NCBI GenBank assembly: GCA_000002445.1
Contig: CP000066.1
Location: 832,001-896,000 of the forward strand
Origin: Trypanosoma brucei
Taxonomy: Eukaryota
Reading direction: 5' to 3'
Length of the DNA stretch: 64,000 nt
Numbering within the stretch: position 1 is the stretch's first letter; each line of letters opens with the position of its first letter. Below the pieces are notes generated by a model. It saw only the letters and a program-made list of their open reading frames with translations. It searched no databases and was not told the DNA's origin. The translations under genes and the position numbers were made by a program. Shown here piece by piece: positions 34,616 through 59,990 of this stretch.

Positions 34616-36391
34616 TCACTCCATGCCGAAGGCGAACACCTCAAACGTGAAAATCGGACGTTCGCAGAAGGAGCGAATGATCTCTTCCGTCAAGTTAGGC
34701 ACTTCAAACAGCTTCACAAAATTCCAACGAGGAGTTTGTGTATCGGTGCTGGCCCGCGTAGCAAAGTACCTTTCCTCATTATCAAACAACATGCTGAACC
34801 TGCAAAATACATGGGCACAGCAAGATTCCGGAATGCCAACGGCACCTACAACATTGAGACAAAAGCGAAGACTCTCCCCCACAAGTATCATGGGGTCCTC
34901 ACGCGCGTAGGCATGCGGATCACAAGGGAATAGCTGGATGTGGAGCTTCGCCTCAGTCAAAAATCCATAGTCATTTAAAAGACCCAGGGTGAATGAGCGT
35001 CGACCTCCTAACATAATACTCTTGGCCGAGATACTAGACTTTCCCTTGAAGTACTGTGTTGCGAGCCTGCCGTCAAGTGAAGCTATACAACCTTTGGTAG
35101 CCGCTTCCACCCTCCGTCGTAGGGCAATGTTACCAAGACGGATACTGTTCACTGCTCTAACTAGGTTCATATTCGTGTTCGACTGGGTATCAGAAGATGC
35201 TAGCGAGCGCCTAAGAGAATCACGTTCCCATATCAATTTGGAGAGCTCCTCCTGCTTTTTCAACCTCTCAGATCCCAATGATCCTAGCTTCTCCTCAAGA
35301 TGCACTGCACACTCCCTCAGTCGCTTCAATTCGTCACTCCCTGTCGCCTCATTAACTCTAACTTTGTTGGTAATTGCCGACGCGTTCTGTGCATACTCAA
35401 GTGTGGATATTGTCTCGGTTAAGTTCGAGGCGGAAGGGGACACTGTCGCAAGCATCCACGTTTTGCTGTTACCACCAAAGCTCTCTGAGAGAAGCCGAGT
35501 CAGTTTCGACGCGCGCAACGAGATGAAACCGTCACTCCCCTTCCGATCACTAAAGGAGTTCAGCGCCCGCCCGAGCATCAGAAGAGATTGGTTTATCTTC
35601 TTCGCTTCCTCAAAGGCAAGACCAGTGGATTCTGCTTTGCTCTGCCGCTCGCTTCCCGCCAAGTCCACCAGCATCGCAACACTTTCCACATCCTTCGTCT
35701 CAAGTGATTCGTGCTGCTGGGAAATAGTAAGCTGAATAATGGCATGCGATCGGGAGCTGGTTTCGTTCATTTTTGTCTCTCCCTTTTGCCGGTTAGCATT
35801 GCCGATGCTGAGTAACTCCATCAGACGATCCAAACTCAGCACAGGGTGTATACCAGCACCCTTCACATAAACACGTCGCTGATTGTCCTCATGAATTTCT
35901 AGCGCCTCCGGCTCCTGTCCTCGCACACGCGGGGCGAGCAGATCGCGCACCTTCTCCATATACACTTCTACCATTGTCAAGGAAAATCTGATCGTTGCGC
36001 GATTGTCCGCTTCCATACGGCGCTGGCCCTCCTCAATCATTGCCTGAGCAAAGCGCGGTGCAATTCCACACCTCGTCTTATCGTTCAGATCACCAAAAAG
36101 ACTATATGTTTTCCCTGTCCCCGTCTGCCCATATGCAAATAAACAAACATTGAAGCCTTCAAACGCCTCCTTCAGCATCGGTCTCCCAACAAAATCATAG
36201 ACCTCCTCCTGAGAGCCAGTGAACACTCGGTCGAATTTGAGGGCAGAGCCACCTTTAGTGCCCTCACCGTCTATCACAACGACATGATTGTCATCCGGGT
36301 CGCCGTGTACCACTGACCTCTCACCCTGACGCGTAGGGAAAATACGGACTCCCACCTGAACTCGGGTCCCCGTTCCCACAGAGTCATGCAT
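34616..36391 (-). CDS. kinesin (N-terminal motor domain), tail variant A
   Basis: P-loop GQTGTGKTY, switch I SSRSHAI and switch II LVDLAGSER. The motor is about 98% identical to the neighbouring gene, and the tail is unique. Confidence 0.9.
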   Translation of the reverse strand: MHDSVGTGTRVQVGVRIFPTRQGERSVVHGDPDDNHVVVIDGEGTKGGSALKFDRVFTGSQEEVYDFVGRPMLKEAFEGFNVCLFAYGQTGTGKTYSLFGDLNDKTRCGIAPRFAQAMIEEGQRRMEADNRATIRFSLTMVEVYMEKVRDLLAPRVRGQEPEALEIHEDNQRRVYVKGAGIHPVLSLDRLMELLSIGNANRQKGETKMNETSSRSHAIIQLTISQQHESLETKDVESVAMLVDLAGSERQSKAESTGLAFEEAKKINQSLLMLGRALNSFSDRKGSDGFISLRASKLTRLLSESFGGNSKTWMLATVSPSASNLTETISTLEYAQNASAITNKVRVNEATGSDELKRLRECAVHLEEKLGSLGSERLKKQEELSKLIWERDSLRRSLASSDTQSNTNMNLVRAVNSIRLGNIALRRRVEAATKGCIASLDGRLATQYFKGKSSISAKSIMLGGRRSFTLGLLNDYGFLTEAKLHIQLFPCDPHAYAREDPMILVGESLRFCLNVVGAVGIPESCCAHVFCRFSMLFDNEERYFATRASTDTQTPRWNFVKLFEVPNLTEEIIRSFCERPIFTFEVFAFGME

Positions 36392-38467
36392 TTCTAATAT
36401 CTAATATAAAGAACAACCTACCCTCAAGAGGCGAAGGGAAAAAATACATAATTGGGGGCCCAAATTCATACCCACTCCATCATGACGTTTTCCCACGTGT
36501 GGCCATGTGTCCTAAGTCCAGTTAAGTGCAAATAGAGGCAAGAGATATATGCATAGCTGGTTCACCACGTCAATCACATGAAACAAACCTACTGATAGCG
36601 AACCAACTGTACAAACACACAGCAAGGGATCATTTTTGGAAATATCGTCGTTTCCACCTGGTACCATTAAACACATTCAGATAGGATAAACCCGTCAACA
36701 CGAAAGTTTAGCACCTCCGCTCGCAGGAACCTTTCAATGTCCTTTGTATGTGGCCCTAATATATATGTCTGCTTGAGGGAAAACAAGGGGTTGCCGCCAT
36801 TAGACCCTACTATGGGCGTTCTTACGGAACTCGAGGAATGTCCCTCAAACCACATGGTCACCTGGGCCCCTCCCGTCACATAGTCAGGTAAGTGAAGGAT
36901 TTCACGAATACGAACAACAACGGCAACACAATTCTCGTCTGCGAGGTGGATATGTACGTGACAAATCAGAAGAGGAGGTGGCCCCGACAGGTTGTAACAT
37001 TGGACAACCATTGTTTCTACCTCAGAACCCCCTAACGGTATACTTCCCAGGGAAGTTTTACAGGTCCCATAAAAGCATGAAAGCGGTGGCTGAGCATGAA
37101 CGCTTGAAGAAGCATCTTGCCCTAAGGCGCTTTTAAGATGCAACAGCAGCTTCTCGCGCTCCTCAAGGGCCTCTCTCAACTCCACTTCAACGTCAAAATC
37201 ACATCTGCAAGATAACATGTTCTGGAGAAACTGAATTTCGTCACGAGCAGAAATTATGTCAACATCCAAATCCGAAACAACTTTCGCTTCACAGCCAAGT
37301 TGTTCCTTTAGTGTTGCAACACGAGACTGTATCGCTTCAAAATTTAGCCTCCTTTCCGCTCTGTTGACTCTAACTTTGTTGGTAATTGCCGACGCGTTCT
37401 GTGCATACTCAAGTGTGGATATTGTCTCGGTTAAGTTCGAGGCGGAAGGGGACACTGTCGCAAGCATCCACGTTTTGCTGTTACCACCAAAGCTCTCTGA
37501 GAGAAGCCGAGTCAGTTTCGACGCGCGCAACGAGATGAAACCCCCATTCCCCTTCCGGTCACTAAAGGAGTTCAGCGCCCGCCCGAGCATCAGAAGAGAT
37601 TGGTTTATCTTCTTCGCTTCCTCAAAGGCAAGACCAGTGGATTCTGCTTTGCTCTGCCGCTCGCTTCCCGCCAAGTCCACCAGCATCGCAACACTTTCCA
37701 CATCCTTCGTCTCAAGTGATTCGTGCTGCTGGGAAATAGTAAGCTGAATAATGGCATGCGATCGGGAGCTGGTTTCGTTCATTTTTGTCTCTCCCTTTTG
37801 CCGGTTAGCATTGCCGATGCTGAGTAACTCCATCAGACGATCCAAACTCAGCACAGGGTGTATACCAGCACCCTTCACATAAACACGTCGCTGATTGTCC
37901 TCATGAATTTCTAGCGCCTCCGGCTCCTGTCCTCGCACACGCGGGGCGAGCAGATCGCGCACCTTCTCCATATACACTTCTACCATTGTCAAGGAAAATC
38001 TGATCGTTGCGCGATTGTCCGCTTCCATACGGCGCTGGCCCTCCTCAATCATTGCCTGAGCAAAGCGCGGTGCAATTCCACACCTCGTCTTATCGTTCAG
38101 ATCACCAAAAAGACTATATGTTTTCCCTGTCCCCGTCTGCCCATATGCAAATAAACAAACATTGAAGCCTTCAAACGCCTCCTTCAGCATCGGTCTCCCA
38201 ACAAAATCATAGACCTCCTCCTGAGAGCCAGTGAACACTCGGTCGAATTTGAGGGCAGAGCCACCTTTAGTGCCCTCACCGTCTATCACAACGACATGAT
38301 TGTCATCCGGGTCGCCGTGTACCACTGACCTCTCACCCTGACGCGTAGGGAAAATACGGACTCCCACCTGAACTCGGGTCCCCGTTCCCACAGAGTCATG
38401 CATTTCTAATATCTAATATAAAGAACAACCTACCCTCAAGAGGCGAAGGGGGAAAATACATAATCGT
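35356..38467. repeat. tandem segmental duplication (2012-bp period) covering the kinesin 5' flank plus motor-domain coding region
   Basis: 35356-36455 is nearly identical to 37368-38467, including a 50-bp identical 5' flank (atttctaatatctaatataaagaacaacctaccctcaagaggcgaaggg). The 3' halves of the genes are unrelated. Confidence 0.85.
36667..38403 (-). CDS. kinesin (N-terminal motor domain), tail variant B
   Basis: The same motor domain as the gene at 34616..36391 (two substitutions across about 340 aa) with a completely different C-terminal 230 aa. Confidence 0.9.
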   Translation of the reverse strand: MHDSVGTGTRVQVGVRIFPTRQGERSVVHGDPDDNHVVVIDGEGTKGGSALKFDRVFTGSQEEVYDFVGRPMLKEAFEGFNVCLFAYGQTGTGKTYSLFGDLNDKTRCGIAPRFAQAMIEEGQRRMEADNRATIRFSLTMVEVYMEKVRDLLAPRVRGQEPEALEIHEDNQRRVYVKGAGIHPVLSLDRLMELLSIGNANRQKGETKMNETSSRSHAIIQLTISQQHESLETKDVESVAMLVDLAGSERQSKAESTGLAFEEAKKINQSLLMLGRALNSFSDRKGNGGFISLRASKLTRLLSESFGGNSKTWMLATVSPSASNLTETISTLEYAQNASAITNKVRVNRAERRLNFEAIQSRVATLKEQLGCEAKVVSDLDVDIISARDEIQFLQNMLSCRCDFDVEVELREALEEREKLLLHLKSALGQDASSSVHAQPPLSCFYGTCKTSLGSIPLGGSEVETMVVQCYNLSGPPPLLICHVHIHLADENCVAVVVRIREILHLPDYVTGGAQVTMWFEGHSSSSVRTPIVGSNGGNPLFSLKQTYILGPHTKDIERFLRAEVLNFRVDGFILSECV

Positions 38468-39163: not shown

Positions 39164-40525
39164 TTAGGAGGTCACCATGTCCCTGGTGTAATGGTTAAAA
39201 AACGCCTCAAGAAGGTTCTTCAGATGAAGCAAATCGGCGGTCCCACACATCTCGCGAATGCTGTGCATGCTTAGCATCGGATTGCCCAAATCGACTGTTT
39301 GGATACCTGATAACGAGGACAAGATCGGCCCTATGGTTGAACCACACGGGGAATCATTCTTCACGCAAAATTCCTGAATGGGCACAGAAGCTCTTTTAGC
39401 GATTGCTTTTACAATCGCAGCGGTGACGCCATTTGTGGCATAGCGCATGTTTGCATTGTATTTGATGACTGGTCCCCGGTGAATAAGGGGGCGATGTTTT
39501 TCTTCGTGTTTATCCTGATAGTTAGGATGAACCGCGTGAGCGCCATCAACTGACATTAAGAATGAGTTAGCCACGAGCTGTGCACGAAGTCCTCCAGATG
39601 CAGAAATGTATTCAATCACATCTGGAACGAGTGAACCCCCGGCACCTTGAGAAGTAGATGATCCCACTTCTTCGTTATCGAAAAGGCACACCATTCTTAT
39701 CATGTTTTCTTCTTCCAGAGTTTTGTCTGATTCGAGAAGGGCTTTCACTCCGCAAAAACATGAAATAAGGTTATCAAGACGGGGTGCATATATGAATTCA
39801 TCGTTTGCCCCACCAACAACAGCATCCTGTGTATCGACTACGCTCAAGTCATAGTCGACTATCTCACTGGGCCGGCAACCAAGGGACTCCGCAAGCAAAA
39901 TAAGCAGCTGAGAGTTATGATGCTCGCTCACATCTCCATTTGGTGTGTGTGAGAGAGTAGTTGCTATTACAGGAACCAGATGTTTTTCTTTGTTTGGTCC
40001 GAACGCATTTCGCTCTTCCACTGACTGAAGGTGAATGGCGAGGGTTGGAATTCGCATAATCGGTTTATTCACCTTGACCAACCGTTTTACCAACTTAGAG
40101 GAGGAAATTATAACCCTTCCTGCAACAGTTAAATCACGATCAAACCAAGTGTGCCACAAGCCACCCCCGTAGCATTGTACCGCAACACCCTGGTAGTCAC
40201 TCCTCCCGGCCAGTGTTCGTGGTTTCAGTGCAAGATTCGGTGAATCGGTGTGAGCTCCAACAATTTTGAGTCCGTTTTCAGCTACGAACCGCCCTCCAAC
40301 GGAGAAGGCGACGAGACTACTGTCGTTTCTGGTTATAAAATACCTGTATCCATTCGTTAACTTAGGCCACGTTTCACCTTCCTTTAGTCTTTGGTAACCA
40401 GCGTTCGACAACCAAGATGAAAGTACCTCTACCGCATGAAAGGGGGTACATGCCTCATTTATAAAGTTGACAAACTCCTTCGCAAGCTGGGTTACAGGCG
40501 GTGAGTCAAGTGGCAACATAGACAA
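39164..40525 (-). CDS. aspartyl aminopeptidase (peptidase family M18)
   Basis: A 453-aa protein with the M18 signature GAHTDSPNLALKP, metal-binding His/Asp/Glu blocks, and a conserved C-terminal HSIRE region. Confidence 0.88.
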   Translation of the reverse strand: MSMLPLDSPPVTQLAKEFVNFINEACTPFHAVEVLSSWLSNAGYQRLKEGETWPKLTNGYRYFITRNDSSLVAFSVGGRFVAENGLKIVGAHTDSPNLALKPRTLAGRSDYQGVAVQCYGGGLWHTWFDRDLTVAGRVIISSSKLVKRLVKVNKPIMRIPTLAIHLQSVEERNAFGPNKEKHLVPVIATTLSHTPNGDVSEHHNSQLLILLAESLGCRPSEIVDYDLSVVDTQDAVVGGANDEFIYAPRLDNLISCFCGVKALLESDKTLEEENMIRMVCLFDNEEVGSSTSQGAGGSLVPDVIEYISASGGLRAQLVANSFLMSVDGAHAVHPNYQDKHEEKHRPLIHRGPVIKYNANMRYATNGVTAAIVKAIAKRASVPIQEFCVKNDSPCGSTIGPILSSLSGIQTVDLGNPMLSMHSIREMCGTADLLHLKNLLEAFFNHYTRDMVTS

Positions 40526-41248: not shown

Positions 41249-43658
41249 ATCCCTCACAAAGGAAGAAAGGATGACCGCATAAACTCGGCGGTTGCCCCAG
41301 TCAGCACACCAACTGACTATTATTAAAAACTCCAGCCCTCCCTCCTTTCCACTTCGACACAAGCATCAAAACACCCGCAATCACTAATATGTGTAATCAC
41401 CTCGATGGAAGAAAACATATAAGAAAGGGTGACGAACTCTCATACTGACCTGAGTGTTCTGTAATAATCGTACAGCAGACCTTTACTGCGAGCGCAAAAT
41501 CAACTGAAAATGGTAACCCACACTACTCAACCGACCTTAATATATGATGGCAACGACGCTACGCACGTTATCACGAACATGAATAGACGCAGCGCGACGT
41601 TACAAGGAGGCACGCCATTCTAACTTGATTTTTTTTTTTGCGTGAATTAGTACTCCTTAAAAAGGAAAACATCTCTATCAACAAGCAATAATCCATATCC
41701 CTCCTCCCTCCCTCTGCACTAAGATTACAAAAACGACCGGACGACGTGACAATTGGTATTCAAGTAAACAAGTCATCCATACTGAACAAAACCCGGCCAG
41801 TTACTCAAAAACAGTCCCCCTCCATTAAAAAAAAAATGTTGGTAGTGTCAGCATCACACAATCACTCCCACTGCAATTCCCTTAAATCCAACAAGTCAGT
41901 TGATAGCCGATTAAAAAAAAGCTAAGATCGAATATATTATTTGATTAGCATACTACCTTGTTTAGTCACTTAGCATCTTTAAAAAAAAAATGAGAGCATG
42001 GCAACACTCGTACACCCTTGCCTCTGATTCAACCTGATACAATGTAACTGAAGGTGAATCGGAAGAAGTAACACACCCAACGGAACTTAAACACTCCCTA
42101 CTCGCAGCCCCAAGAATTGTAGGTGCAAGTCCAATGCCACAGTATCGAAAAAAAAGTCCAAACAGAAACAACCTTTTATTGTATATACCACACCTTTGCA
42201 ACATCGAGTGCAGGTGGACAATATCTCGCACACAAGTAGGTGGTTGAGATCGGCGAAAATAAGGTCATCCTCAGACGTAAAACTGCACCTGAAGGGCCTG
42301 TCAGCCCCACGCTACCCTTTCTACAAATTTTGCATGCTAAACAGTAAAAAAAAGAAAGAAAGAAATGGTTGGATTGCTGAACTCGGAGCTTCACGTTTTC
42401 CAGAAGTGCGCTCGTTCTTCAGAAGAGGGAAGAAGTCACCAAAATTCATAACAAAATCCATGACCGCGCTGGGAGCATCCAAAGGGGTGATGACAGCCCC
42501 TCATGCATCTATCCTGTAAAAGAACGATTGACCCCACGGTAAATGCGAGGACAAAACCGCGGGATCCCGACGTACTCCAGCCTGCGCGGTCAAGGTTAAA
42601 AAGGCTAAGTGAGGAACGAAATCACCAAGTTCTATTTTTAAAAAAAACGGGTGCTTTTAATCACTGAAAGCAAGCCAGAGAGCCCTTCCCTGTTCACCCC
42701 CTTGACAGGGCCACGTCACCCCGCAAACCCCACCGGCAGCCGACTGCGCACAAATACTCCGCAGTAAAAACGAAAAAATTATCAGAAGATATCAATCAAC
42801 CCAACAGTCCCAGAAAGCTCTTTCACACCCAAAAAAATCCCAAAGTCCCCACAGCGGTAGATAAATCGATACCGAAAAAAAAAAGGTCGCCCGCACCTCT
42901 ATTCCATACATTACCCAAGTAACGCAGGGAGAAAGAGCCAAATTCCACCTATTAACGCGGAATCATCTGCAGTGCCCTCATCACCCCTCGAACCAGCCGA
43001 CACCTTCTGTGCGCTAGAAGTGCTTGAAACTTCACACGGACCTCATGTGCACTAACGGAGCCTATCAACATCTCGAAGCGATACCCGTTTCGTCCTAAAC
43101 ACTTCCTCACAGACATGTCTCACTATAACAAAATATATACGCACCACTACGAACACCAGGTCTATGCCTGGTCGACCGTTACGCAACAAACAAAAAACTC
43201 TCCTCCTACCGATGTACCAAACAATAAGCACCCGCATGCATACCTCCTTTCTTTAATCAAAACGTTTAAAAAAAGTGTCCAGAGGAAAAGGGAAGAGAGA
43301 TGGAAAGAAGCCACGCTCAACCCACCTTATTAAAAAAGAAAAAAGCAAACCGACCTCCCCCCAGCCCGCCCACCCCATACACACCCCATTTTTTTTTGAA
43401 ATTTTCTTCGTGCCTTCGCGAGAGTTTCCCCCCACTGGCGCGGCCATCAGCCATCACCGTAGAGCTCTGAGATGCTATCGGTCTGGCGACTGTGGCAGAG
43501 TCTCCCTTTTTTATTCAGCCCAACACACTCTCTATAATTTTTGTTGTATTTCCGCGGCTGAACGGAATACAGCAGATGGGGCGAGAAGCCCCCCACCCTG
43601 GACTCTCCCAAAGATGTCAATTGGCAATCCTTTTGTTTTGATTTTTGTTATTCGTTTA

Positions 43659-44957
43659 TTATTCTCTCTCCCTCTTTCTGTTTCTGTTGCTTGTTGACTG
43701 CATACCTCCTCTGTCTCTGAGGGTGTCTGGACTATTCCTGCGTCCGGTGCTTTTCCTGCTAGCTCCACCCTCGGCAATAAGGGGGGAAGTTGCAGAAGGG
43801 AGAGTGGGTTGTATGACTGTTACATTAGGGGAGGACTTCACCCGCGGCCGGCTCCGTTCAACCGCAATGAGAAATTGCGCCAGCCTTTTGGAGAAACATA
43901 TATCCTGCACACACACCCCCTCTACCGCAAACCTGACACGTAACTCCTTCAAACCGGGACAGCTCATCAAGTGCAGCGACGTTTCTTCGCAGTCGCCGCG
44001 TTGGCTGGTAACAGCGCGCTCTACTTTCATACCGCGCATCTTCTTTTGATGTAGGGTGAGGCCAGTTTTGCTAGCACACTGCCTTCCGCATGTCGGGCAC
44101 ACCAACATGGATGTGTTTGTATGCGGGGAATCAGTGGCACACAATTTTGTGCTTTTGCTGCATTTAAGCTCGACTCCCTCACCTTTGTGGAAAGCCTTGC
44201 AGTGTCGGATGAGGGAGTCCCTGCAACTGAGCACTTTTTGGCACACACCACACTGCACCTCGCCTTTCCCCGGGACGTCAACGTTTCCCTCACGGGTACG
44301 CTTACGAGGGAATTGCACCACCACCACGGTACCGTCCTCCGTCACTATGCTCTTATGTTTGAATTTCTTGCGTAGTGACAGGGAAGAGCGTGTACCGAAG
44401 CTCGCCTCGCACAGGTCACATTGAAACGGCAGCTCCTGTGTATCCTGAGGGGCTGGCGCTGCTGGGACGCTACCATCTCCTTGCAATGAGTCCTCGTTCT
44501 CTCGCCCCCTTTTCACGCGGTAACTACCGCTGCCTATGCCATGTATTGTTCTAAGGTGGTGTAATAGTCGGCCTGGCACTGCGAATTTGGAGGCACAGAG
44601 GGTACAATGAAGCACCTGCGGTCTCATCGGGACTCGTGTGCTCGGTGGTAGAGGAACGATCGCCACCACTGGAGGGGGCTCCGGGGGGATATCCACTATA
44701 GGTGTTGCATCGCCGTATTTGATCCTCCGGAGGGCATCAGCTCGCACAAAGCCGTGTGTGTTTACCATGTGCGTTACAGCACTCGAGCGGCATTGGTATG
44801 TGGCATCACATACCGTACATTTGGTTGGTTCGGAGGTTCTCTGAACAGTGCGTGTCGCAACAGGTGGGGCTGTTTGTATTGTTGGTTCTATCGCTGTATG
44901 TTGCGGGTTACACCATCGGCACTGCGGGGGCACACTCGGGTTGATCTTCCGCAACAT
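43659..44957 (-). pseudogene. retroelement ORF fragment: C2H2 zinc-finger (nucleic-acid chaperone-like) C-terminal domain
   Basis: At least five Cx2Cx12Hx3-5H fingers (for example CTVCDATYQCRSSAVTHMVNTHG and CTLCASKFAVPGRLLHHLRTIHG), as in the C-terminus of L1Tc/ingi ORFs. Confidence 0.65.
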
Positions 44958-45107
44958 CCATCCATAGTGCCTTGAAGACCCAACCCGAAAGCGTGCCAGT
45001 GCCGTTTCTTCTTCCCTCGTCAGTTCTTCTTTATGTTTTGTTGGAAAGTGGTTGCCCGTGATACCAAACCTATGAGTGTTCTCATGGACTTCTTCCTACC
45101 TAAGCAC

Positions 45108-47639
45108 TCACTTCGCATAAGCAATGATGTCGGGGATCCATGTGTCTCGCAACTGTGGTAAATCTGCAGCCTTTTTGGCCATTTCATCGCAAACCTCATT
45201 CCGTTTCACGCCACAATGGCCAAACACAAATTGCAGTCGGATACGTATCTTCCTTCTCTGAACTTGAAGCAGAAGCCTCCATAGTCGTCTCAGAATTGGG
45301 TCCGTTACGGCTAGGGGGCCTGTCTGCAGTGCTGTTAACATTGACAGCGAGTCAGAGAAGATGGACAACCTGCTCGGTGTGCTTCTGTATGCCGGAAGCC
45401 ATTTCAGCAGCCGTTGCAGTCCTATCTCTAATGCTACGCATTCCGCTCTGTAACTGCATGAGAGTTCCCCTGCTCCGGTTTTGGGTGCGCAAATCAGCGT
45501 GTTGTTTCTATAGAGCAGGGCAGCTGCCTCGGACTTCTCACCGAGGGACACGGATCCATCAGTCCACAATTCGTAGTGCTCTCGCCGCGGTGGCTCCTTC
45601 CCCCTCCGTGCAAAATGCCGTTCAATCCACTTTTCGGAAGCCTCCCTTTTGACATCGTCAGGGTCATCAGCGCACACAGGCTTTATCTGCGTGTGAAATA
45701 GCGATCGGCAGCTGTGGCGGAGCGTCGATGTCTCTAGTGGGTGCTCGCGTGGCTCAATGCGGAGGTGGGGGTAGGACCGCATGATGCGGGAATGTAGGGC
45801 TCTGACTGGGTGTTTGCTGTGGTATACTTCCTCAGCACTGCGGCGCAAACATCCGCCTCGTGACTCACACATCAGCATGAATTTCATGCCGCGCACAAGA
45901 GTGGTCGTCTTGAGTGGCAGGAGGTTTGCTTCCAGCAGAGAGTCCTCTTTGCGCGTCCCATGCGGTATGCCAGCTATGATGCGACTGGCTTTGTGTTGTG
46001 CTGCTGCAAGGAGGTCGCGACTTCGTTCCGAAGCGTCCCAGTACCATACCTCAATGCCATACATGGTGTGTGCCTGTACGAGTGCTAGATAAAAAGCTCT
46101 CAGTAGTTGTCGTCTTGGCCCCCATGTAGAAGCTGAGATGGCTGCTATCTGCAGTAGTCGGAAGTCCATCTTGCGTCTCGTTTCGGCCGCATGTGTTGCC
46201 ATCCCTTGCAGACACTGGAATGTTACTCCTAGAAGCTTCGGTGTCCTGTCAGCTCCTATTCTTTCGCCGTCCAGTTGTAATGTAAGGGGGTGGCGCTCTA
46301 TACACCCGAAGAGTGTGCACTTTGTTTTCGCTACGTTGACAGACATGAAGTACTCTTTTGACCACTGTAACACTACGTTGAGGCCGCATTGCAGTGTGTG
46401 GTTGATGACATCCCTCTCTCTGTATCTCGCAAGTAGCGTCAGGTCGTCTGCAAAGAATCCGTTCTGCAGTAACGGCAGTCCTGCAAGGCGCTGGCTCAAC
46501 GAGTTCATGACAATAATGAACATGATTGGGCCAAGGACAGTTCCTTGTGGCACTCCTCGTTCAAATGTTCTGCTGCTGGAAAGCTTCTCCTTGAATCTCA
46601 CTCTGCCAGTTCGGTTACTCAGAAATGATACGCACCACTTCACAATGTGGGGTGATACCTTCATTATGTGCATTTCCCTCGCAATTTTGTCGTGGTCTGC
46701 TGTATCGAATGCCTTCTCGTAGTCAACGAATACAGCACCCGTACGAGATTGGTGCGTGGGGCGGCAGAGGGCAGCGCGGACGTGCAGGAGTTGTTCGAGC
46801 GTTGAGCATCCGGGGCGAAAGCCTGATTGCTGCGGCGTCAGCTGGGACTCAACAGTGTCTCTAAGCCTCGCGGCAATTATGCGCTCCATGACTTTGCAGA
46901 GACAGCTCGTGAGCGTCACAGGCCTGTAAGAATCGAGGTCCTCCGCCTTTTTTCCGGCCTTCAGGATGGGGATGATAACACCAGTCTTCCATGCAGGCGG
47001 CACGACTCCCGTTCGTAGGCTCTCATTGAATAGCCTCAGAACAACATTCAGCGCTGTTCTGCCGAGATGTTGCAGTGCCTCGTTGTATAAGCAATCAGGT
47101 CCGGCAGCGGATCCACTCGGTAGCAGTTTGATCGATCTCCGTAGTTCAGCCATCGTGATGGGACTGAACTCACTCGCTGTCGTCTTTATGGGTGCCGGTG
47201 GGTGTGAGTCGGGGTGTCTTCTTGCGCGGGACGAGTACAGTTTAATGAACCTCTCAGCTTGACGGTAGTCCGTGATGGCCGCGTTATCAACCAGCGCCGC
47301 CGGTGTGGTTAGTGGTCGTGGCGCATATACCTTCTTGACAATGTGCCAACTGCAGCGGTCTGACACCGCAAGTCTGGAGCATAGCGTGCTCCATCTCTTC
47401 TTTGTGGTACGGTCCAGGATCTGCTTACGCGTGGCTACCAACTTTTCCCTTCGGTGGGAGGGTCCACATCCAGCGATCTCTTCATCGACTTTCGCGAGCT
47501 CAGGTGTCCAATGTGGTGGCGTTGCTCTGCAGCCACGGGGGACGGAGACCTTCGTCGCAATGCGGATGGCGGAGCTCAATTTAATGTTCCAGGGTGTTGA
47601 CGTTCTTCTCTCTACCAATTTTCCTGCAGAGCTCGTCAA
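45108..47639 (-). pseudogene. retroelement ORF fragment: reverse transcriptase plus RNase H
   Basis: RT blocks (PDCLYNEAL, FVDYEKAFDTADH, GVPQGTVLGP, FADDLTLL) are followed by an RNase H-like LWTDGS...ECVALEIGLQ. It ends in TGA (45108-45110), in the same frame as the downstream zinc-finger ORF. Confidence 0.8.
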
Positions 47640-47904
47640 CCTTGAGACGGAAATTCCTCCAGTTAGCTTTTAGCCATGCGTACATGGGCTTTCGAAGCCG
47701 CGGTCGGCTCAGTGCATCTGTGCCGTCTCCAACGATAACGTCGAAAAATATGTGATGGTGATCGCTATTGGGAGAATACAGCGATGCCCACGTGTACACT
47801 GTACAATTCCTTGACAGTTTCACATCAGGGGTGGACTCCCCGTGGTGGCGCGTGTACCTGGTGCACTCACCAGTGTTGCAGACCAGAAACTGGTTGTCAA
47901 TGCA

Positions 47905-48657
47905 TCACTGTGTGAGGGTTTCACCCTTGGTATTTGGTGGGCTCGCGCGATCCCATGCCAACGTGTGTGCGTTAGCGTCTGCACCGATGAGCTGGGAACC
48001 GTCAGTCGTCAGAACCGTATATAGGTCAGTTGCCGTGAAGGTGTGTTTTGGTGGGATGTATGCCGACGTGACGGTCAGCGCCGTTTCACGTGCAAGGTGA
48101 ATTGTTGCATGCACTTGTTCAATGCGACCAACAACGGCCATACCGGTCTCGACTGGTAGGTCCTCCCTCACTAGTGTTGATACACCACCTCCTTTGCAGT
48201 TACGAGCTATTCCGTGATGTTTGTAGCCAGCAACGCTAAAGCAAGCCGCCTCTCCAGGCGTCATCCTTGTCTCGCTCAACAGACAAAAGGCGATCCGCTC
48301 ATCAACAAGGGTTTTGTGGAGTGCTAATCTCTTTCCTTGAGATAGCCCGGCGCAGTTCCACTTCATCCCGCGCAACGACGGGCCGGGATTCTCTTCCACA
48401 TCACCGGACAGCAGCATCTTAGTGCGGATGATACTGCTGATGGCACGCTGGCACGTGCCCAGGGACCGACAAATGAAAAACGGTGTCCCAGCAAGACGCT
48501 GCTGATCACTGTGCTGTATGATGCCGTAGCCGGAGCACAGCATTGTTCCCCATGAAAGGAACGCTGCTAGCTCTTGGCTTCCCCCGATGATACGGGGCAC
48601 TGGACCCTGGCACCACGTTGAGGTGGCCGGCGTCGCCCCTGAGCAGACTCTTGACAA
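47905..48657 (-). pseudogene. retroelement ORF fragment: 2A-like peptide plus apurinic/apyrimidinic endonuclease domain
   Basis: SSIIRTKMLLSGDVEENPGP is followed by the exonuclease-III/APE fold (LLSETRM..., ...GGGVSTLVRED...). It lies in frame 0 and ends at a stop, and the next domain is in frame 2, so a frameshift separates them. Confidence 0.7.
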
Positions 48658-51600
48658 TCACAAACTCGCTGTTGCCGCTCATGGTATTGGAAGCAGGCCC
48701 ATCCCACCGTGGCAGACCAACACCCAAATAAGCTACGGGTGCTTCTCCTACAAATACGGGAGGGAAAGCGTATACCACATTGAAGTTTGTATTTAGTTAC
48801 TGATGTGGAATGGAATGGGATGTTTGATGGTATGGTGGAAAGGGTGACTGACATGCCGCAGTTGCCTGACCCGAAGCTCCAGGACATTGTAACCTACATG
48901 GGACCGATATTGCTGTCAGCGGAAAAGGGAGTGAAGAAGAGGTGGCAGTGGCTCGTTCCCACCCCGTTGCCTCTCGGCATTGCGAATGTATGCTGCGAAA
49001 TATCAACACGCGGACACCGCTGCAGTGCCTGAAATGAAAAGTACAAAGCTCGGCTTACAAAGCGTCGAACTCCGACAACCCATGCGACCACTGCGACAGC
49101 GAAAAACAGTATGACCCACACTGGTGATGAAATGAGGTGGCGTGAGCACAAAGCCCATGGCTAGTGCCAGTCGAGTGCTGTAACGCATATGGTAAACAAA
49201 CACGAATATGTCCGCGCGGATGCGCCGTGAATATCGAGGTGCGGCGACACACCGTGCCTTTCATGTATTTTCCGGGATCCTCTTCCAACTGAGAATTCAC
49301 AGCTAGGAGTGCAGTGTGCGCCGGAATGGGTTTAAGCAAGGAGACTGCTCGGGGAGACGCCGCAGAGCGCATCACGGTGTGTGTGTGTGTTTGGGGGAGG
49401 AGGAGGAGCTTGAGCTCAAGAGGTGGACGCACAAATGAACGACAGACACCAAGCAAATGCACATTAACACCAATGTTTCCAACATGTGTGTCACAGCGCC
49501 GCAATCAAACCTGACCTTGTACTTTATAGAAAGACACGCGTGGCTTCCACGCGACACCTGAAATCACAACCCAATGCAACGATTTCGATTGAAAGTTACC
49601 ATTATTATTGAGCTGCCAATGGGTGAAAGATTTTCATGGACAGTGTGTTGTGGAAGAGTGATCATACGGGTCTAAAGGACTTTGGAGATAATTTGCATAG
49701 TTTCTCCTCGCGGTGGAACGGTACCACCAGGCGCCGCACCCATTTTCCACTTGTATCTTCTCTTCTTGACACCATAGAAGGATCTGACAACACAAACAGC
49801 GCACGCAGCGATCATAAGCAAAGAGCTACCCCCACATACGGGAAAGAAGAGGAGAAAGAGGGATAAAGGGAATCGATAACATCAAAAAAAATTTATGTCA
49901 GAAAGTTTAGCGACTTCGCATCTTTAAAATGAGCACACTGTGGGGAAGTGTGCTGTTCCGTCTCCTGTATACTGCGCTATGACGACTCTGAAGGAGTAAA
50001 AGAAAACATCGGAATGGAGGGAGGCATACATTATACATAACGAAGAGACTCAACCACATTCATCAACAACAAAAGCAATTCCAATATACACTAGTCAACA
50101 ACCACCTCAGCGGTGAAGTTAACTCCAACGCGAGGACAGGAAAATATCCCCTAAAAAGAGTCCTGCACGACTTGGTTCGTGATGGATTGGGAAAGGCTCA
50201 CATTGTACCTTACTTTATGGTAGACAAGACCGTATGCCTTTCCCAAGCCTAACGGTGACGAACGAGAGGACATTGTCTGATACCATAACGAAAGCTAACG
50301 GGCAGAAGGTGTCACTTACGTATTTGGTAGCGCGTACCATTTAGTCACATTTGGCATCATAAGCAGCTATAGCGCATTACTCTTCTTCAGGCAACCGAAG
50401 TTATGGTATCATTGTGTCATCGTCACTGAGCAGGAAATGTTTTCACAGATGGTATAAGGAAAAGAGTATGTGCTTCTTCTACATAAATTTCTACGAGAAG
50501 ATAGAGTTTAAGGCTGCGCTTGCATCGATGTATTTCTCAACGTTTCAAAGGAAAGAAGCAGTTGTGAGATGTTGTGGAGCAAGTGAAAGAGATTGAGATA
50601 AATATGGATGATATTGGATGATCGGATTCATATGGTGGGGCCTTTACTGCCTTTGTTGAATGGAACTTCCTACAAGCAATGCTGTGATGTGGAGGAACCA
50701 CGATATGAACTTACTGATTTAGTTGTAACAATTGTATGACGGTTCATGAAAGCATCAGAGTATCTGGAAAACGAGTGATGGGAATGTAAGACATGAGACA
50801 CACAGCAAAAAATGCAATTCTAATCCAAGTGAGTGGTGAGGTGATGCACAGACATGTTCGTTGTGTTACATTGCTCTGGAGAAGAGACTGAAAGCTTCGG
50901 TGTATGGAGTCCATATCATTGGGAGGAATCAACCGTACAAGACATTTTATCACGTACTTCAGTGAGATGTTACACAAGGTATTAGAGAATGTTACTGTGA
51001 ATAGTAGCCTTAATGGCTGACTTCACCGCAAACGACGTGGGTGGAGCTTACGAAATAAAACGCCTTCAGCGTGGTAAGGAGCTATCTTGACACAAATATG
51101 TGTTATTACAAGGAAAGATATCGCCATATGCGTATTATTTTCCTTATGTTGATGTTTTGTGCGTGGCATACAATCAAAAATGTAACGAAGGTTGGATACC
51201 CTTACACAACCCATCAAAGACAATTTTCCATCTTGCTGATACGTTTTGTTTGTGTGTGGGGGGGGGGGGGAATTACAGTCAAATGTAATGTCGATCCACA
51301 ATTGTTTTGATTCATGCAGTAACAGAATATATCGACATTGTGTTTCACCTGACTCAGTCATTATGTCTATAAGGGGAATAAAGGAGGCACTTGATCCTAG
51401 GGGGACTTTTGAAAGACAATCTGGAATGGGGAAATCATCTTTATGCGTCATGTGTACTGCACAGGAAGTGTTTGAGATTAAGCGTAAACTTCATTCAAAT
51501 GAAGAGAACACGAATCCGAAATGTGTGGGTATTATGAAAGCACGATCACCCCCCACACCCACTGAAGATGGGCAAATCGATGAGAAACTGTGGGGTAATG

Positions 51601-52170: not shown

Positions 52171-52280
52171 NNNNNNNNNNNNNNNNNNNNNNNNNNNNNN
52201 NNNNNNNNNNNNNNNNNNNNNNNNNNNNNNNNNNNNNNNNNNNNNNNNNNNNNNNNNNNNNNNNNNNNNNNNNNNNNNNN
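52171..52280. other. assembly gap (110 N)
   Basis: A run of n characters at the proximal edge of the satellite array. The array length is therefore a minimum. Confidence 0.99.
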
Positions 52281-55200
52281 TATCGCACAAAACCCTGTTA
52301 CAGTGTGATTGGGTAACGCCCTTCCACTGATCACATGCATTGGTGGCACATCATGGCCCATCTTTCATGGTTATCGCCCCTACGGCGCATAATGGCGTGT
52401 TATCGCACAAAACCCTGTTACAGTGTGATTGGGTAACGCCCTTCCACTGATCACATGCATTGGTGGCACATCATGGCCCATCTTTCATGGTTATCGCCCC
52501 TACGGCGCATAATGGTGTGTTATCGCACAAAACCCTGTTACAATGCGATTGGGTAACGCCCTTCCACTGATCACATGCATTGGTGGCACATCATGGCCCA
52601 TGTTTCATGGTTATCGCCCCTACGGCGCATAATGGTGTGTTATCGCACAAAACCCTGTTACAATGCGATTGGGTAACGCCCTTCCACTGATCACATGCAT
52701 TGGTGGCACATCATGGCCCATATTTCATGGTTATCGCCCCTACGGCGCATAATGGCGTGTTATCGCACAAAACCCTGTTACAGTGTGATTGGGTAACGCC
52801 CTTCCACTGATCACATGCATTGGTGGCACATCATGGCCCATCTTTCATGGTTATCGCCCCTACGGCGCATAATGGCGTGTTATCGCACAAAACCCTGTTA
52901 CAGTGTGATTGGGTAACGCCCTTCCACTGATCACATGCATTGGTGGCACATCATGGCCCATCTTTCATGGTTATCGCCCCTACGGCGCATAATGGCGTGT
53001 TATCGCACAAAACCCTGTTACAGTGTGATTGGGTAACGCCCTTCCACTGATTACATGCATTGGTGGCACATCATGGCCCATCTTTCATGGTTATCGCCCC
53101 TACGGCGCATAATGGCGTGTTATCGCACAAAACCCTGTTACAGTGTGATTGGGTAACGCCCTTCCACTGATTACATGCATTGGTGGCACATCATGGCCCA
53201 TGTTTCATGGTTATCGCCCCTACGGCGCATAATGGCGTGTTATCGCACAAAACCCTGTTACAGTGTGATTGGGTAACGCCCTTCCACTGATCACATGCAT
53301 TGGTGGCACATCATGGCCCATCTTTCATGGTTATCGCCCCTACGGCGCATAATGGCGTGTTATCGCACAAAACCCTGTTACAATGCGATTGGGTAACGCC
53401 CTTCCACTGATCACATGCATTGGTGGCACATCATGGCCCATCTTTCATGGTTATCGCCCCTACGGCGCATAATGGCGTGTTATCGCACAAAACCCTGTTA
53501 CAGTGTGATTGGGTAACGCCCTTCCACTGATTACATGCATTGGTGGCACATCATGGCCCATGTTTCATGGTTATCGCCCCTACGGCGCATAATGGCGTGT
53601 TATCGCACAAAACCCTGTTACAGTGTGATTGGGTAACGCCCTTCCACTGATCACATGCATTGGTGGCACATCATGGCCCATCTTTCATGGTTATCGCCCC
53701 TACGGCGCATAATGGTGAGTTATCGCACAAAACCCTGTTACAGTGTGATTGGGTAACGCCCTTCCACTGATCACATGCATTGGTGGCACATCATGGCCCA
53801 TCTTTCATGGTTATCGCCCCTACGGCGCATAATGGTGAGTTATCGCACAAAACCCTGTTACAGTGTGATTGGGTAACGCCCTTCCACTGATCACATGCAT
53901 TGGTGGCACATCATGGCCCATCTTTCATGGTTATCGCCCCTACGGCGCATAATGGCGTGTTATCGCACAAAACCCTGTTACAGTGTGATTGGGTAACGCC
54001 CTTCCACTGATTACATGCATTGGTGGCACATCATGGCCCATGTTTCATGGTTATCGCCCCTACGGCGCATAATGGCGTGTTATCGCACAAAACCCTGTTA
54101 CAGTGTGATTGGGTAACGCCCTTCCACTGATCACATGCATTGGTGGCACATCATGGCCCATCTTTCATGGTTATCGCCCCTACGGCGCATAATGGTGTGT
54201 TATCGCACAAAACCCTGTTACAATGCGATTGGGTAACGCCCTTCCACTGATCACATGCATTGGTGGCACATCATGGCCCATCTTTCATGGTTATCGCCCC
54301 TACGGCGCATAATGGCGTGTTATCGCACAAAACCCTGTTACAGTGTGATTGGGTAACGCCCTTCCACTGATCACATGCATTGGTGGCACATCATGGCCCA
54401 TCTTTCATGGTTATCGCCCCTACGGCGCATAATGGTGTGTTATCGCACAAAACCCTGTTACAATGCGATTGGGTAACGCCCTTCCACTGATCACATGCAT
54501 TGGTGGCACATCATGGCCCATCTTTCATGGTTATCGCCCCTACGGCGCATAATGGTGTGTTATCGCACAAAACCCTGTTACAGTGTGATTGGGTAACGCC
54601 CTTCCACTGATCACATGCATTGGTGGCACATCATGGCCCATCTTTCATGGTTATCGCCCCTACGGCGCATAATGGCGTGTTATCGCACAAAACCCTGTTA
54701 CAGTGTGATTGGGTAACGCCCTTCCACTGATCACATGCATTGGTGGCACATCATGGCCCATCTTTCATGGTTATCGCCCCTACGGCGCATAATGGTGTGT
54801 TATCGCACAAAACCCTGTTACAATGCGATTGGGTAACGCCCTTCCACTGATCACATGCATTGGTGGCACATCATGGCCCATGTTTCATGGTTATCGCCCC
54901 TACGGCGCATAATGGTGTGTTATCGCACAAAACCCTGTTACAATGCGATTGGGTAACGCCCTTCCACTGATCACATGCATTGGTGGCACATCATGGCCCA
55001 TATTTCATGGTTATCGCCCCTACGGCGCATAATGGCGTGTTATCGCACAAAACCCTGTTACAATGCGATTGGGTAACGCCCTTCCACTGATCACATGCAT
55101 TGGTGGCACATCATGGCCCATCTTTCATGGTTATCGCCCCTACGGCGCATAATGGCGTGTTATCGCACAAAACCCTGTTACAGTGTGATTGGGTAACGCC

Positions 55201-58200
55201 CTTCCACTGATCACATGCATTGGTGGCACATCATGGCCCATCTTTCATGGTTATCGCCCCTACGGCGCATAATGGTGTGTTATCGCACAAAACCCTGTTA
55301 CAGTGTGATTGGGTAACGCCCTTCCACTGATCACATGCATTGGTGGCACATCATGGCCCATCTTTCATGGTTATCGCCCCTACGGCGCATAATGGCGTGT
55401 TATCGCACAAAACCCTGTTACAGTGTGATTGGGTAACGCCCTTCCACTGATCACATGCATTGGTGGCACATCATGGCCCATCTTTCATGGTTATCGCCCC
55501 TACGGCGCATAATGGTGTGTTATCGCACAAAACCCTGTTACAATGCGATTGGGTAACGCCCTTCCACTGATCACATGCATTGGTGGCACATCATGGCCCA
55601 TGTTTCATGGTTATCGCCCCTACGGCGCATAATGGTGTGTTATCGCACAAAACCCTGTTACAATGCGATTGGGTAACGCCCTTCCACTGATCACATGCAT
55701 TGGTGGCACATCATGGCCCATATTTCATGGTTATCGCCCCTACGGCGCATAATGGCGTGTTATCGCACAAAACCCTGTTACAGTGTGATTGGGTAACGCC
55801 CTTCCACTGATCACATGCATTGGTGGCACATCATGGCCCATCTTTCATGGTTATCGCCCCTACGGCGCATAATGGTGAGTTATCGCACAAAACCCTGTTA
55901 CAGTGTGATTGGGTAACGCCCTTCCACTGATCACATGCATTGGTGGCACATCATGGCCCATCTTTCATGGTTATCGCCCCTACGGCGCATAATGGTGAGT
56001 TATCGCACAAAACCCTGTTACAGTGTGATTGGGTAACGCCCTTCCACTGATCACATGCATTGGTGGCACATCATGGCCCATCTTTCATGGTTATCGCCCC
56101 TACGGCGCATAATGGTGAGTTATCGCACAAAACCCTGTTACAGTGTGATTGGGTAACGCCCTTCCACTGATCACATGCATTGGTGGCACATCATGGCCCA
56201 TCTTTCATGGTTATCGCCCCTACGGCGCATAATGGTGAGTTATCGCACAAAACCCTGTTACAGTGTGATTGGGTAACGCCCTTCCACTGATTACATGCAT
56301 TGGTGGCACATCATGGCCCATCTTTCATGGTTATCGCCCCTACGGCGCATAATGGCGTGTTATCGCACAAAACCCTGTTACAGTGTGATTGGGTAACGCC
56401 CTTCCACTGATTACATGCATTGGTGGCACATCATGGCCCATGTTTCATGGTTATCGCCCCTACGGCGCATAATGGCGTGTTATCGCACAAAACCCTGTTA
56501 CAGTGTGATTGGGTAACGCCCTTCCACTGATCACATGCATTGGTGGCACATCATGGCCCATCTTTCATGGTTATCGCCCCTACGGCGCATAATGGTGAGT
56601 TATCGCACAAAACCCTGTTACAGTGTGATTGGGTAACGCCCTTCCACTGATCACATGCATTGGTGGCACATCATGGCCCATCTTTCATGGTTATCGCCCC
56701 TACGGCGCATAATGGTGTGTTATCGCACAAAACCCTGTTACAATGCGATTGGGTAACGCCCTTCCACTGATCACATGCATTGGTGGCACATCATGGCCCA
56801 TCTTTCATGGTTATCGCCCCTACGGCGCATAATGGCGTGTTATCGCACAAAACCCTGTTACAGTGTGATTGGGTAACGCCCTTCCACTGATCACATGCAT
56901 TGGTGGCACATCATGGCCCATCTTTCATGGTTATCGCCCCTACGGCGCATAATGGCGTGTTATCGCACAAAACCCTGTTACAGTGTGATTGGGTAACGCC
57001 CTTCCACTGATCACATGCATTGGTGGCACATCATGGCCCATCTTTCATGGTTATCGCCCCTACGGCGCATAATGGCGTGTTATCGCACAAAACCCTGTTA
57101 CAATGCGATTGGGTAACGCCCTTCCACTGATCACATGCATTGGTGGCACATCATGGCCCATCTTTCATGGTTATCGCCCCTACGGCGCATAATGGCGTGT
57201 TATCGCACAAAACCCTGTTACAGTGTGATTGGGTAACGCCCTTCCACTGATCACATGCATTGGTGGCACATCATGGCCCATCTTTCATGGTTATCGCCCC
57301 TACGGCGCATAATGGTGTGTTATCGCACAAAACCCTGTTACAATGCGATTGGGTAACGCCCTTCCACTGATCACATGCATTGGTGGCACATCATGGCCCA
57401 TATTTCATGGTTATCGCCCCTACGGCGCATAATGGCGTGTTATCGCACAAAACCCTGTTACAGTGTGATTGGGTAACGCCCTTCCACTGATCACATGCAT
57501 TGGTGGCACATCATGGCCCATCTTTCATGGTTATCGCCCCTACGGCGCATAATGGTGAGTTATCGCACAAAACCCTGTTACAGTGTGATTGGGTAACGCC
57601 CTTCCACTGATCACATGCATTGGTGGCACATCATGGCCCATCTTTCATGGTTATCGCCCCTACGGCGCATAATGGTGAGTTATCGCACAAAACCCTGTTA
57701 CAGTGTGATTGGGTAACGCCCTTCCACTGATTACATGCATTGGTGGCACATCATGGCCCATCTTTCATGGTTATCGCCCCTACGGCGCATAATGGCGTGT
57801 TATCGCACAAAACCCTGTTACAGTGTGATTGGGTAACGCCCTTCCACTGATTACATGCATTGGTGGCACATCATGGCCCATGTTTCATGGTTATCGCCCC
57901 TACGGCGCATAATGGCGTGTTATCGCACAAAACCCTGTTACAGTGTGATTGGGTAACGCCCTTCCACTGATCACATGCATTGGTGGCACATCATGGCCCA
58001 TCTTTCATGGTTATCGCCCCTACGGCGCATAATGGTGTGTTATCGCACAAAACCCTGTTACAATGCGATTGGGTAACGCCCTTCCACTGATCACATGCAT
58101 TGGTGGCACATCATGGCCCATCTTTCATGGTTATCGCCCCTACGGCGCATAATGGCGTGTTATCGCACAAAACCCTGTTACAGTGTGATTGGGTAACGCC

Positions 58201-59990
58201 CTTCCACTGATCACATGCATTGGTGGCACATCATGGCCCATCTTTCATGGTTATCGCCCCTACGGCGCATAATGGTGTGTTATCGCACAAAACCCTGTTA
58301 CAATGCGATTGGGTAACGCCCTTCCACTGATCACATGCATTGGTGGCACATCATGGCCCATCTTTCATGGTTATCGCCCCTACGGCGCATAATGGCGTGT
58401 TATCGCACAAAACCCTGTTACAGTGTGATTGGGTAACGCCCTTCCACTGATCACATGCATTGGTGGCACATCATGGCCCATCTTTCATGGTTATCGCCCC
58501 TACGGCGCATAATGGTGTGTTATCGCACAAAACCCTGTTACAATGCGATTGGGTAACGCCCTTCCACTGATCACATGCATTGGTGGCACATCATGGCCCA
58601 TGTTTCATGGTTATCGCCCCTACGGCGCATAATGGTGTGTTATCGCACAAAACCCTGTTACAATGCGATTGGGTAACGCCCTTCCACTGATCACATGCAT
58701 TGGTGGCACATCATGGCCCATATTTCATGGTTATCGCCCCTACGGCGCATAATGGCGTGTTATCGCACAAAACCCTGTTACAGTGTGATTGGGTAACGCC
58801 CTTCCACTGATCACATGCATTGGTGGCACATCATGGCCCATCTTTCATGGTTATCGCCCCTACGGCGCATAATGGTGAGTTATCGCACAAAACCCTGTTA
58901 CAGTGTGATTGGGTAACGCCCTTCCACTGATCACATGCATTGGTGGCACATCATGGCCCATCTTTCATGGTTATCGCCCCTACGGCGCATAATGGTGAGT
59001 TATCGCACAAAACCCTGTTACAGTGTGATTGGGTAACGCCCTTCCACTGATCACATGCATTGGTGGCACATCATGGCCCATCTTTCATGGTTATCGCCCC
59101 TACGGCGCATAATGGTGAGTTATCGCACAAAACCCTGTTACAGTGTGATTGGGTAACGCCCTTCCACTGATTACATGCATTGGTGGCACATCATGGCCCA
59201 TCTTTCATGGTTATCGCCCCTACGGCGCATAATGGCGTGTTATCGCACAAAACCCTGTTACAGTGTGATTGGGTAACGCCCTTCCACTGATTACATGCAT
59301 TGGTGGCACATCATGGCCCATGTTTCATGGTTATCGCCCCTACGGCGCATAATGGCGTGTTATCGCACAAAACCCTGTTACAGTGTGATTGGGTAACGCC
59401 CTTCCACTGATCACATGCATTGGTGGCACATCATGGCCCATCTTTCATGGTTATCGCCCCTACGGCGCATAATGGTGAGTTATCGCACAAAACCCTGTTA
59501 CAGTGTGATTGGGTAACGCCCTTCCACTGATCACATGCATTGGTGGCACATCATGGCCCATCTTTCATGGTTATCGCCCCTACGGCGCATAATGGTGAGT
59601 TATCGCACAAAACCCTGTTACAGTGTGATTGGGTAACGCCCTTCCACTGGTTACATGCATTGGTGGCACATCATGGCCCATCTTTCATGGTTATCGCCCC
59701 TACGGCGCATAATGGCGTGTTATCGCACAAAACCCTGTTACAGTGTGATTGGGTAACGCCCTTCCACTGATTACATGCATTGGTGGCACATCATGGCCCA
59801 TGTTTCATGGTTATCGCCCCTACGGCGCATAATGGCGTGTTATCGCACAAAACCCTGTTACAGTGTGATTGGGTAACGCCCTTCCACTGATCACATGCAT
59901 TGGTGGCACATCATGGCCCATGTTTCATGGTTATCGCCCCTACGGCGCATAATGGTGTGTTATCGCACAAAACCCTGTTACAATGCGATT
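52281..59990. repeat. 120-bp tandem satellite array (about 64 copies, about 51% GC); candidate centromere-associated repeat
   Basis: The unit tacggcgcataatggcgtgttatcgcacaaaaccctgttacagtgtgattgggtaacgcccttccactgatcacatgcattggtggcacatcatggcccatctttcatggttatcgcccc repeats with an exact 120-bp period. Four polymorphic sites define variant units arranged in recurring blocks. Confidence 0.95.

Follow-up and report, generated by a model that had tools for sequence, protein, structure and literature searches.

A canonical N-terminal 2A sequence in an inactivated ingi retrotransposon of Trypanosoma brucei

The 60 nucleotides at positions 48379-48438 of the 64,000-nucleotide stretch of Trypanosoma brucei DNA analysed here (the window) very probably encode the standard N-terminal 2A sequence of the T. 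brucei ingi non-LTR retrotransposon, carried in this instance by a dead copy of the element in which it has no function of its own. The 2A of this element is already known and published, and its sequence, position and context in the window are as described in the literature. This instance, found in the reference genome of TREU927, does not differ from the family consensus, and its interest is therefore slight beyond its correct annotation. The 2A sequences of ingi and L1Tc, the first non-viral ones to be described, have been known from publications since 2001-2006; both are reportedly contained in the work of Heras et al. 2006, where they are said to be active.

The 2A motif and its reading frame

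Translation of the minus strand from position 48438 to 48379 yields the peptide SSIIRTKMLLSGDVEENPGP, and translation of the plus strand over the same interval yields an unrelated peptide. The earlier note had located the motif at exactly these coordinates without giving a strand. The 20-mer corresponds to codons 66-85 of the ingi open reading frame (ORF) and to nucleotides 200-259 of the element. Its last nine residues, GDVEENPGP (48379-48405, minus strand), are a perfect fit to the C-terminal 2A signature -GD(V/I)ExNPGP-, and by position in the -NPG/P motif the predicted skip site falls between Gly84, encoded at 48382-48384, and Pro85, encoded at 48379-48381 (both minus strand). The 12 residues upstream of the motif, SSIIRTKMLLSG, are identical in other T. 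brucei ingi copies.

When the 64,000 nucleotides were scanned in six frames, D(V/I)ExNPGP and NPGP each occurred once, at the same site, and the canonical motif proposed from the sequence is thus the only one in the window. As the motif is short, and as NPGP alone arises about 0.9 times per shuffled window, we considered whether D(V/I)ExNPGP could have arisen by chance in DNA that is degenerate or does not code for protein, with no link to 2A biology. The full motif, however, was absent from all 300 mononucleotide shuffles of the window, and the back-translated DNA pattern GAYRTNGARNNNAAYCCNGGNCC, whose single match in the 64-kb window lies at 48380-48402 (minus strand), was matched in none of 100 dinucleotide-preserving shuffles. 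The same pattern is found at nucleotides 232-254 after the ATG in 5/5 other T. brucei-group copies, so that the motif is not only in frame with the ingi ORF but also occupies the same offset in each of them, and it has been kept in the T. grayi and T. theileri elements while the surrounding leader has fallen to 34-51% identity. These alignments with homologous copies effectively refute a chance match, to which we assign next to no probability; the D(V/I)ExNPGP motif is genuine and non-random in the window.

The frame of the 2A is that of the 65-codon leader and of the apurinic/apyrimidinic-type (APE-type) endonuclease domain, and it is common to the homologous ingi proteins, which start with MPATSTWCQGPVPRIIGG, carry SSIIRTKMLLSGDVEENPGP at residues 66-85 and continue with SLRGMQWNCAGLSQG, with which the endonuclease domain begins. 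The earlier note had placed the motif upstream of an endonuclease domain and had named a motif out of frame with the true ORF of the element as the finding that would count against it; the alignment shows the motif in frame, with the APE domain directly after the 2A.

DVEENPGP is intact in 9 of the 11 T. brucei-group sequences aligned, the window counted among them; P0003 reads DVEKNTGP, and the motif is disrupted in P0014. In four sequences from T. b. equiperdum, T. b. brucei and T. b. gambiense (P0004, P0008, P0009 and P0011), the whole 20-mer is identical to that of the window, and its distance from the initiator sequence MPATS is the same. The more distant relatives retain 18/20 residues of the 2A in T. 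grayi (P0006; 33/65 in the leader and 42/65 in the first 65 residues after the 2A), 15/20 in one T. theileri protein (P0010; 22/65 and 38/65, respectively) and 17/20 in another (P0018; 39/65 in the leader, and 5/5 aligned residues after the 2A, where the region is otherwise not covered). The 20-residue block is thus the best-conserved N-terminal part in the T. grayi and T. theileri relatives. In this small sample, the pattern is consistent with that expected if the 2A were under purifying selection in active elements, and conservation of the block above that of the leader and of the APE start is consistent with the functional importance in active elements that published work attributes to the 2A.

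Residues of the 20-mer were compared with database homologues of the ingi protein, and MLLSG is present in every database copy examined. An earlier assay of the T. brucei 'TSR1' 2A-like sequence is said to have used ...RTKMLVSGDVEENPGP (MLVSG), which differs at one residue. The exact 20-mer found here, with MLLSG, is presumed to be the ingi variant reported to be active. Trypanosome 2A sequences are absent from De Felipe 2004.

The ingi element and the state of its reading frame

The 2A lies within a full-length ingi (Tbingi) non-LTR retrotransposon of 5,249 bp at 43389..48637 on the minus strand, as delimited by blastn against L001, L004 and L005, the three full-length elements among the five T. 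brucei-group loci encoding ingi fragments that served as our comparison copies. Homology to each of these three starts at window position 48637, and in the two complete ones it ends at 43389; identity to L001 and L005 is 95.7-95.8% over approximately 5,260 aligned nucleotides (MAFFT pairwise). We also considered whether L002 and L003 might be RIME elements with a 2A, and rejected this, as they match the first 415 and 303 nucleotides of ingi, respectively, and not its 3' end, which makes them 5' fragments. When the protein encoded by the first ORF of the window element served as query, all sequences returned were from Trypanosoma. The best matches are ingi fragments from T. brucei equiperdum, gambiense and brucei at 86-96% identity; proteins from T. 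grayi, and those from T. theileri annotated as 'Tbingi protein', reach 50-58%.

The earlier note had associated the motif with L1Tc and ingi-related elements, and DIRE-like fragments adjoin the element, both of which might favour the view that it is an L1Tc (the T. cruzi type) or an old ingi-related DIRE and not ingi proper. The L1Tc motif, however, is DIEQNPGP, compared with DVEENPGP in the window, and DNA identity to Tbingi copies reaches 95.8% over the full 5.2 kb. In addition, the flanking genes encode exact T. b. brucei TREU927 proteins (AAZ10361-AAZ10374, on a contig of 1,653,225 bp), and DIREs are by definition degenerate, vestigial ingi-related elements (PMC3820030), a description that the window copy does not fit. 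Full-length Tbingi homology and the flanking T. brucei genes refute an L1Tc or DIRE identity, whose probability we regard as negligible; of the two names that had been put forward, the ingi affiliation stands, as Tbingi, and L1Tc does not.

As it stands in the window, the minus strand of the element contains an ORF with weak Pfam matches to Exo_endo_phos and Exo_endo_phos_2 (48657..47905), an ORF with RVT_1 and RNase_H (47639..45108), and an ORF with C2H2 zinc fingers (44957..43659). Conceptual repair of the lesions described below, by the consensus of the other copies, gives an ORF of approximately 1,657 codons whose order is leader, 2A (66-85), APE, reverse transcriptase, RNase H and C2H2, and whose natural stop codon, TAA, is at 43659..43661. 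On the minus strand of the window, the leader peptide coding region (codons 1-65, before the 2A 20-mer) was placed by alignment with homologues at 48439..48633, and the APE-type endonuclease domain by Exo_endo_phos_2 on the repaired protein at 47749..48378. These are followed by the reverse transcriptase domain at 46218..46946 (Pfam RVT_1, E = 1.9e-41), the RNase H domain at 45165..45578 (Pfam RNase_H, E = 4e-09) and the C2H2 zinc-finger region of the C-terminal domain at 44040..44255 (zf-C2H2_4 with 29.2 bits, and zf-C2H2). In the repaired protein, Exo_endo_phos_2 covers residues 187-295 with 41.8 bits (cut-off 27.4), RVT_1 residues 563-805 (E = 2.8e-41) and RNase_H residues 1019-1156 (E = 1e-08). 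The C2H2 finger at residues 1460-1482 scores 18.2 bits there, below the cut-off of 27, and zf-C2H2_4 exceeds its cut-off on the separate, unrepaired C-terminal ORF. The APE assignment is based on Pfam, and the endonuclease homologues carry PF03372/PF14529; a phmmer comparison of the APE region with PDB sequences gave no match.

At the 5' end of the element, the '79-bp signature', or Pr77 region, aligns at 48563..48637 (minus strand). This region has been described as an internal promoter and an HDV-like ribozyme (PMC1874656, PMC3185411, PMC4035085), and by analogy the 5' region in the window may have had promoter and ribozyme function. A search of the whole window for an HDV-like ribozyme or Pr77 gave no Rfam match at gathering thresholds, and at the 5' end Rfam at E values up to 1 returned just a chance match to mir-1249 (E = 0.92); Rfam appears to lack a model for the Pr77/HDV-like ribozyme of ingi. 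The ATG lies 9 nucleotides from the 5' end of the element, too close to it for an ORF1 to fit in between. In this copy the 5' signature differs at its first four nucleotides, CAGG standing before GGCG where the others read CCCTGGCG, and the sequence is conserved from GGCG onward; the change from CCCT to CAGG at 48638-48640 (minus strand) points to the loss of 4 nt by 5' truncation or to a rearranged junction.

The 3' end is marked by a short poly(A) of nine residues (A9; 43389..43397, minus strand), which in the other copies is A10-A11 at the same place. Tbingi elements normally have a 12-bp target-site duplication (PMC3820030, a study in which 63 Tbingi and 70 TbRIME copies were aligned). No shared word of at least 7 nucleotides was found here between 63 nucleotides of 5' flank and 69 nucleotides of 3' flank, and the directly adjacent 12-mers agree, by eye, at 2/12 positions. 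The missing duplication is in keeping with a copy that is old or has recombined, and leaves the identity of the element unaffected; in combination with the altered 5' tetranucleotide, it suggests that the 5' end was truncated, or that copies have undergone recombination or gene conversion with one another.

Alignment with the other copies identified five lesions that disable the ORF, all of them private to the window copy. The start codon at 48631..48633 (minus strand) has been changed from ATG to ACG by a private T>C at 48632, whereas it is ATG in 5/5 other copies, and the protein accordingly reads TPATSTWCQGP where its homologues begin MPATSTWCQGP. Three premature stop codons replace sense codons of the consensus: TGA for TGG at Trp243 (47905..47907), TGA for CGA (45108-45110) and TAG for TCG (45096-45098). 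A +1 frameshift at 47583..47585 combines a 1-nt insertion at approximately 47584 with a substitution, such that ACATTAAA stands against ACA-GAAA. With these lesions, the window copy of ingi is a dead pseudogene. Despite them, the copy is young or well kept, with private changes at 108 of 5,260 sites (2.05%, taking the agreement of L001 and L005 as reference) and with only 0-3 of these in several 300-nt bins of the element. Positions 48632, 48598, 48569, 48543, 48508 and 48363 are among those with private changes. The description of this copy as otherwise decayed thus holds for its ORF, and is too strong for an element that is full length and has so little private divergence.

All 60 bases encoding the 2A agree with the six-copy consensus, and in this sense the motif is preserved, as had been claimed. 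This preservation carries no signal, however: a divergence of 2.05% predicts 1.23 changes per 60 nucleotides, with a Poisson probability of approximately 0.29 for none, so the intact stretch needs nothing beyond chance. The useful outcome is a negative one, namely that the motif has been preserved without the need for a special explanation, as 60 nucleotides would not be expected to have decayed at so low a divergence.

A different account of the same 60 nucleotides would be that the 2A, or its DNA, has been selectively retained in the dead copy through co-option, either as a leader-2A peptide made from a new ATG or in a centromeric DNA or RNA role. This would accord with the lack of any difference in the 60 nucleotides against 108 private substitutions elsewhere, with the position of the element approximately 3.5 kb from a centromeric array region, and with a private CTG>ATG change at codon 31 (48541..48543, minus strand), which supplies a replacement in-frame AUG 30 codons past the lost start. 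Against it stand the Poisson expectation given above and the several 300-nt bins that are as little changed; moreover, the downstream ORF stops within the APE domain, and Pr77-driven transcripts of ingi and L1Tc have been described as unspliced and poorly translated (PMC1874656, PMC3383444). On the Poisson expectation we reject the idea that selection has preserved the 2A here, consider such co-option very unlikely, and regard the CTG>ATG change as a coincidence. It is still more improbable that the dead ingi is partly expressed from the AUG at 48541-48543, which would give a 54-residue leader ending in NPG and a 158-residue truncated APE beginning at Pro85. If true, such expression would amount to a residual or co-opted coding role for a centromere-adjacent pseudogene, with the 2A kept for that purpose. 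By far the preferred reading remains that of an ordinary ingi 2A, intact by chance in a pseudogene.

Genomic surroundings of the element

All ORFs of at least 200 residues at 1221-40525 are on the minus strand and form one directional (polycistronic) gene cluster, with the ingi in the same orientation at the upstream edge of the cluster. Genes in this region, all on the minus strand, encode phosphofructokinase (8818-10281), a katanin/VPS4-like protein (11271-12605), a cyclic-nucleotide phosphodiesterase (23193-25223) and an M18 aspartyl aminopeptidase (39164-40519), along with two tandem kinesin paralogues that cross-match in DNA (34616-36391 and 36667-38403).

On the plus strand, 48742-49290 and 61488-61742 have weak protein similarity to ingi residues 1119-1321 and 632-717, respectively (27-53% identity), and 49165-49223 is a 59-nt DNA match to ingi that is 83% identical. 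The segments at 48742-49290 and 61488-61742 are probably degenerate ingi/L1Tc-related (DIRE) remnants that flank the ingi and a repeat array. Except for this weak DIRE-like protein similarity, no other ingi or 2A copies were found in the window.

The repeat array begins directly past an assembly gap of 110 N (52171-52280) and extends over 7.7 kb (52281-59990), comprising 64 copies of a 120-bp unit with 98% matches and an AT content of 49.8%. Its features agree with those published for the repeat associated with the chromosome 3 centromere of T. brucei, an array of 120-bp units with an AT content of only 49% that is flanked by ingi and DIRE sequences and lies between directional gene clusters (PMC1868937, Obado et al. 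2007). As the true chromosome 3 array has been estimated at approximately 30 kb (PMC1868937), compared with 7.7 kb here, the array has probably been collapsed in the assembly.

The T. equiperdum OVI contig CZPT02000349.1 (L006) is collinear with the window and 99.9-100% identical to it, and ends, with its position 1, exactly at the ingi poly(A), at window position 43397; the ingi is probably present at the orthologous site in T. equiperdum and broke that assembly. In L001, from T. b. equiperdum, the inverted last ~690 nucleotides of an ingi (6304-6992) directly precede the full ingi. This inverted fragment is 92% identical to window positions 44072-43391, and its poly(A) end abuts the 5' end of the full copy.

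Predicted mechanism and comparison with known 2A systems

In an intact ingi, the ribosome would be expected to make an 84-residue leader ending ...GDVEENPG, at which point the nascent 2A in the exit tunnel would block the bond between Gly84 and Pro85 and the leader would be freed without a stop codon. Translation would next either resume at Pro85 or end. Resumption would yield a separate polyprotein of 1,573 residues comprising APE, reverse transcriptase, RNase H and zinc finger, and overall less of the retrotransposition enzymes would be made. This account of skipping, together with the activity and the down-regulating role of the ingi 2A, is drawn here from published work on 2A sequences, and would apply to intact members of the family. 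In the window copy the mechanism is moot, as the canonical AUG is lost and the downstream frame ends at codon 243.

According to that work, the 2A blocks formation of its final Gly-Pro bond, such that the upstream product ends in ...NPG and a restart at Pro is possible; the C-terminal motif by itself is inactive and requires a suitable upstream tract, and the L1Tc and ingi 2A sequences are reported to have been tested and to be active (PMC3708506). The presence of 2A sequences in trypanosome non-LTR elements, which the earlier note had treated as known, has indeed been described for both ingi and L1Tc, and in these elements the 2A has been proposed to down-regulate the APE and reverse transcriptase products (PMC3708506, PMC3894237). 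Such down-regulation, which is a hypothesis even in the literature (PMC3708506, PMC3894237), would fit the abundance of L1Tc mRNA alongside scant ORF2 protein. In non-LTR elements, 2A sequences lie 40-80 residues from the N-terminus, and in L1Tc and ingi directly before the APE (PMC3708506), a placement that the 2A of the window, at codons 66-85, fits. Of the 'class A' 2A peptides found in Excavata, almost 90% are from Trypanosoma (PMC12338488).

The closest known system is the Tbingi 2A itself (PMC3708506), with which the window shares the species group, the element, the position (codons 66-85, directly before the APE) and the 20-mer. There is no difference in the 2A, and the two are set apart only by the pseudogenised state of the host copy in the window. 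The 2A of L1Tc from T. cruzi belongs to the same ingi clade and shares the N-terminal site, the single ORF without an ORF1 and the proposed role (PMC3708506, PMC3894237), but its core is -DIEQNPGP-, with variants such as -DIEQHPGP-, in a T. cruzi host, whereas that of the window is -DVEENPGP- in T. brucei.

Among the viral NPGP 2A sequences, those of Thosea asigna virus (T2A) and porcine teschovirus (P2A) provide tools whose GDVEENPGP, a string that occurs in 287 papers, is the same as the C-terminal sequence in the window, and the limnipivirus 2A sequences ...RLLLSGDVEQNPGP and ...RLKMSGDVEENPGP have a Leu-rich xLLSG context that resembles the one found here. The viral sequences separate domains of RNA-virus polyproteins, whereas the ingi 2A would detach a short leader from the polyprotein of a retrotransposon in a cellular genome. 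Lastly, metazoan APE-type non-LTR elements (Rex1, L2, CR1, Crack and Ingi-1_AC; Odon et al. 2013) carry their 2A in the long ORF, 40-80 residues from its N-terminus; in these elements the presence of a 2A correlates with the absence of ORF1, as in ingi. They belong to other clades and hosts, and in many of them the key Glu is substituted and the 2A inactive, whereas the 2A sequence of the window is fully canonical.
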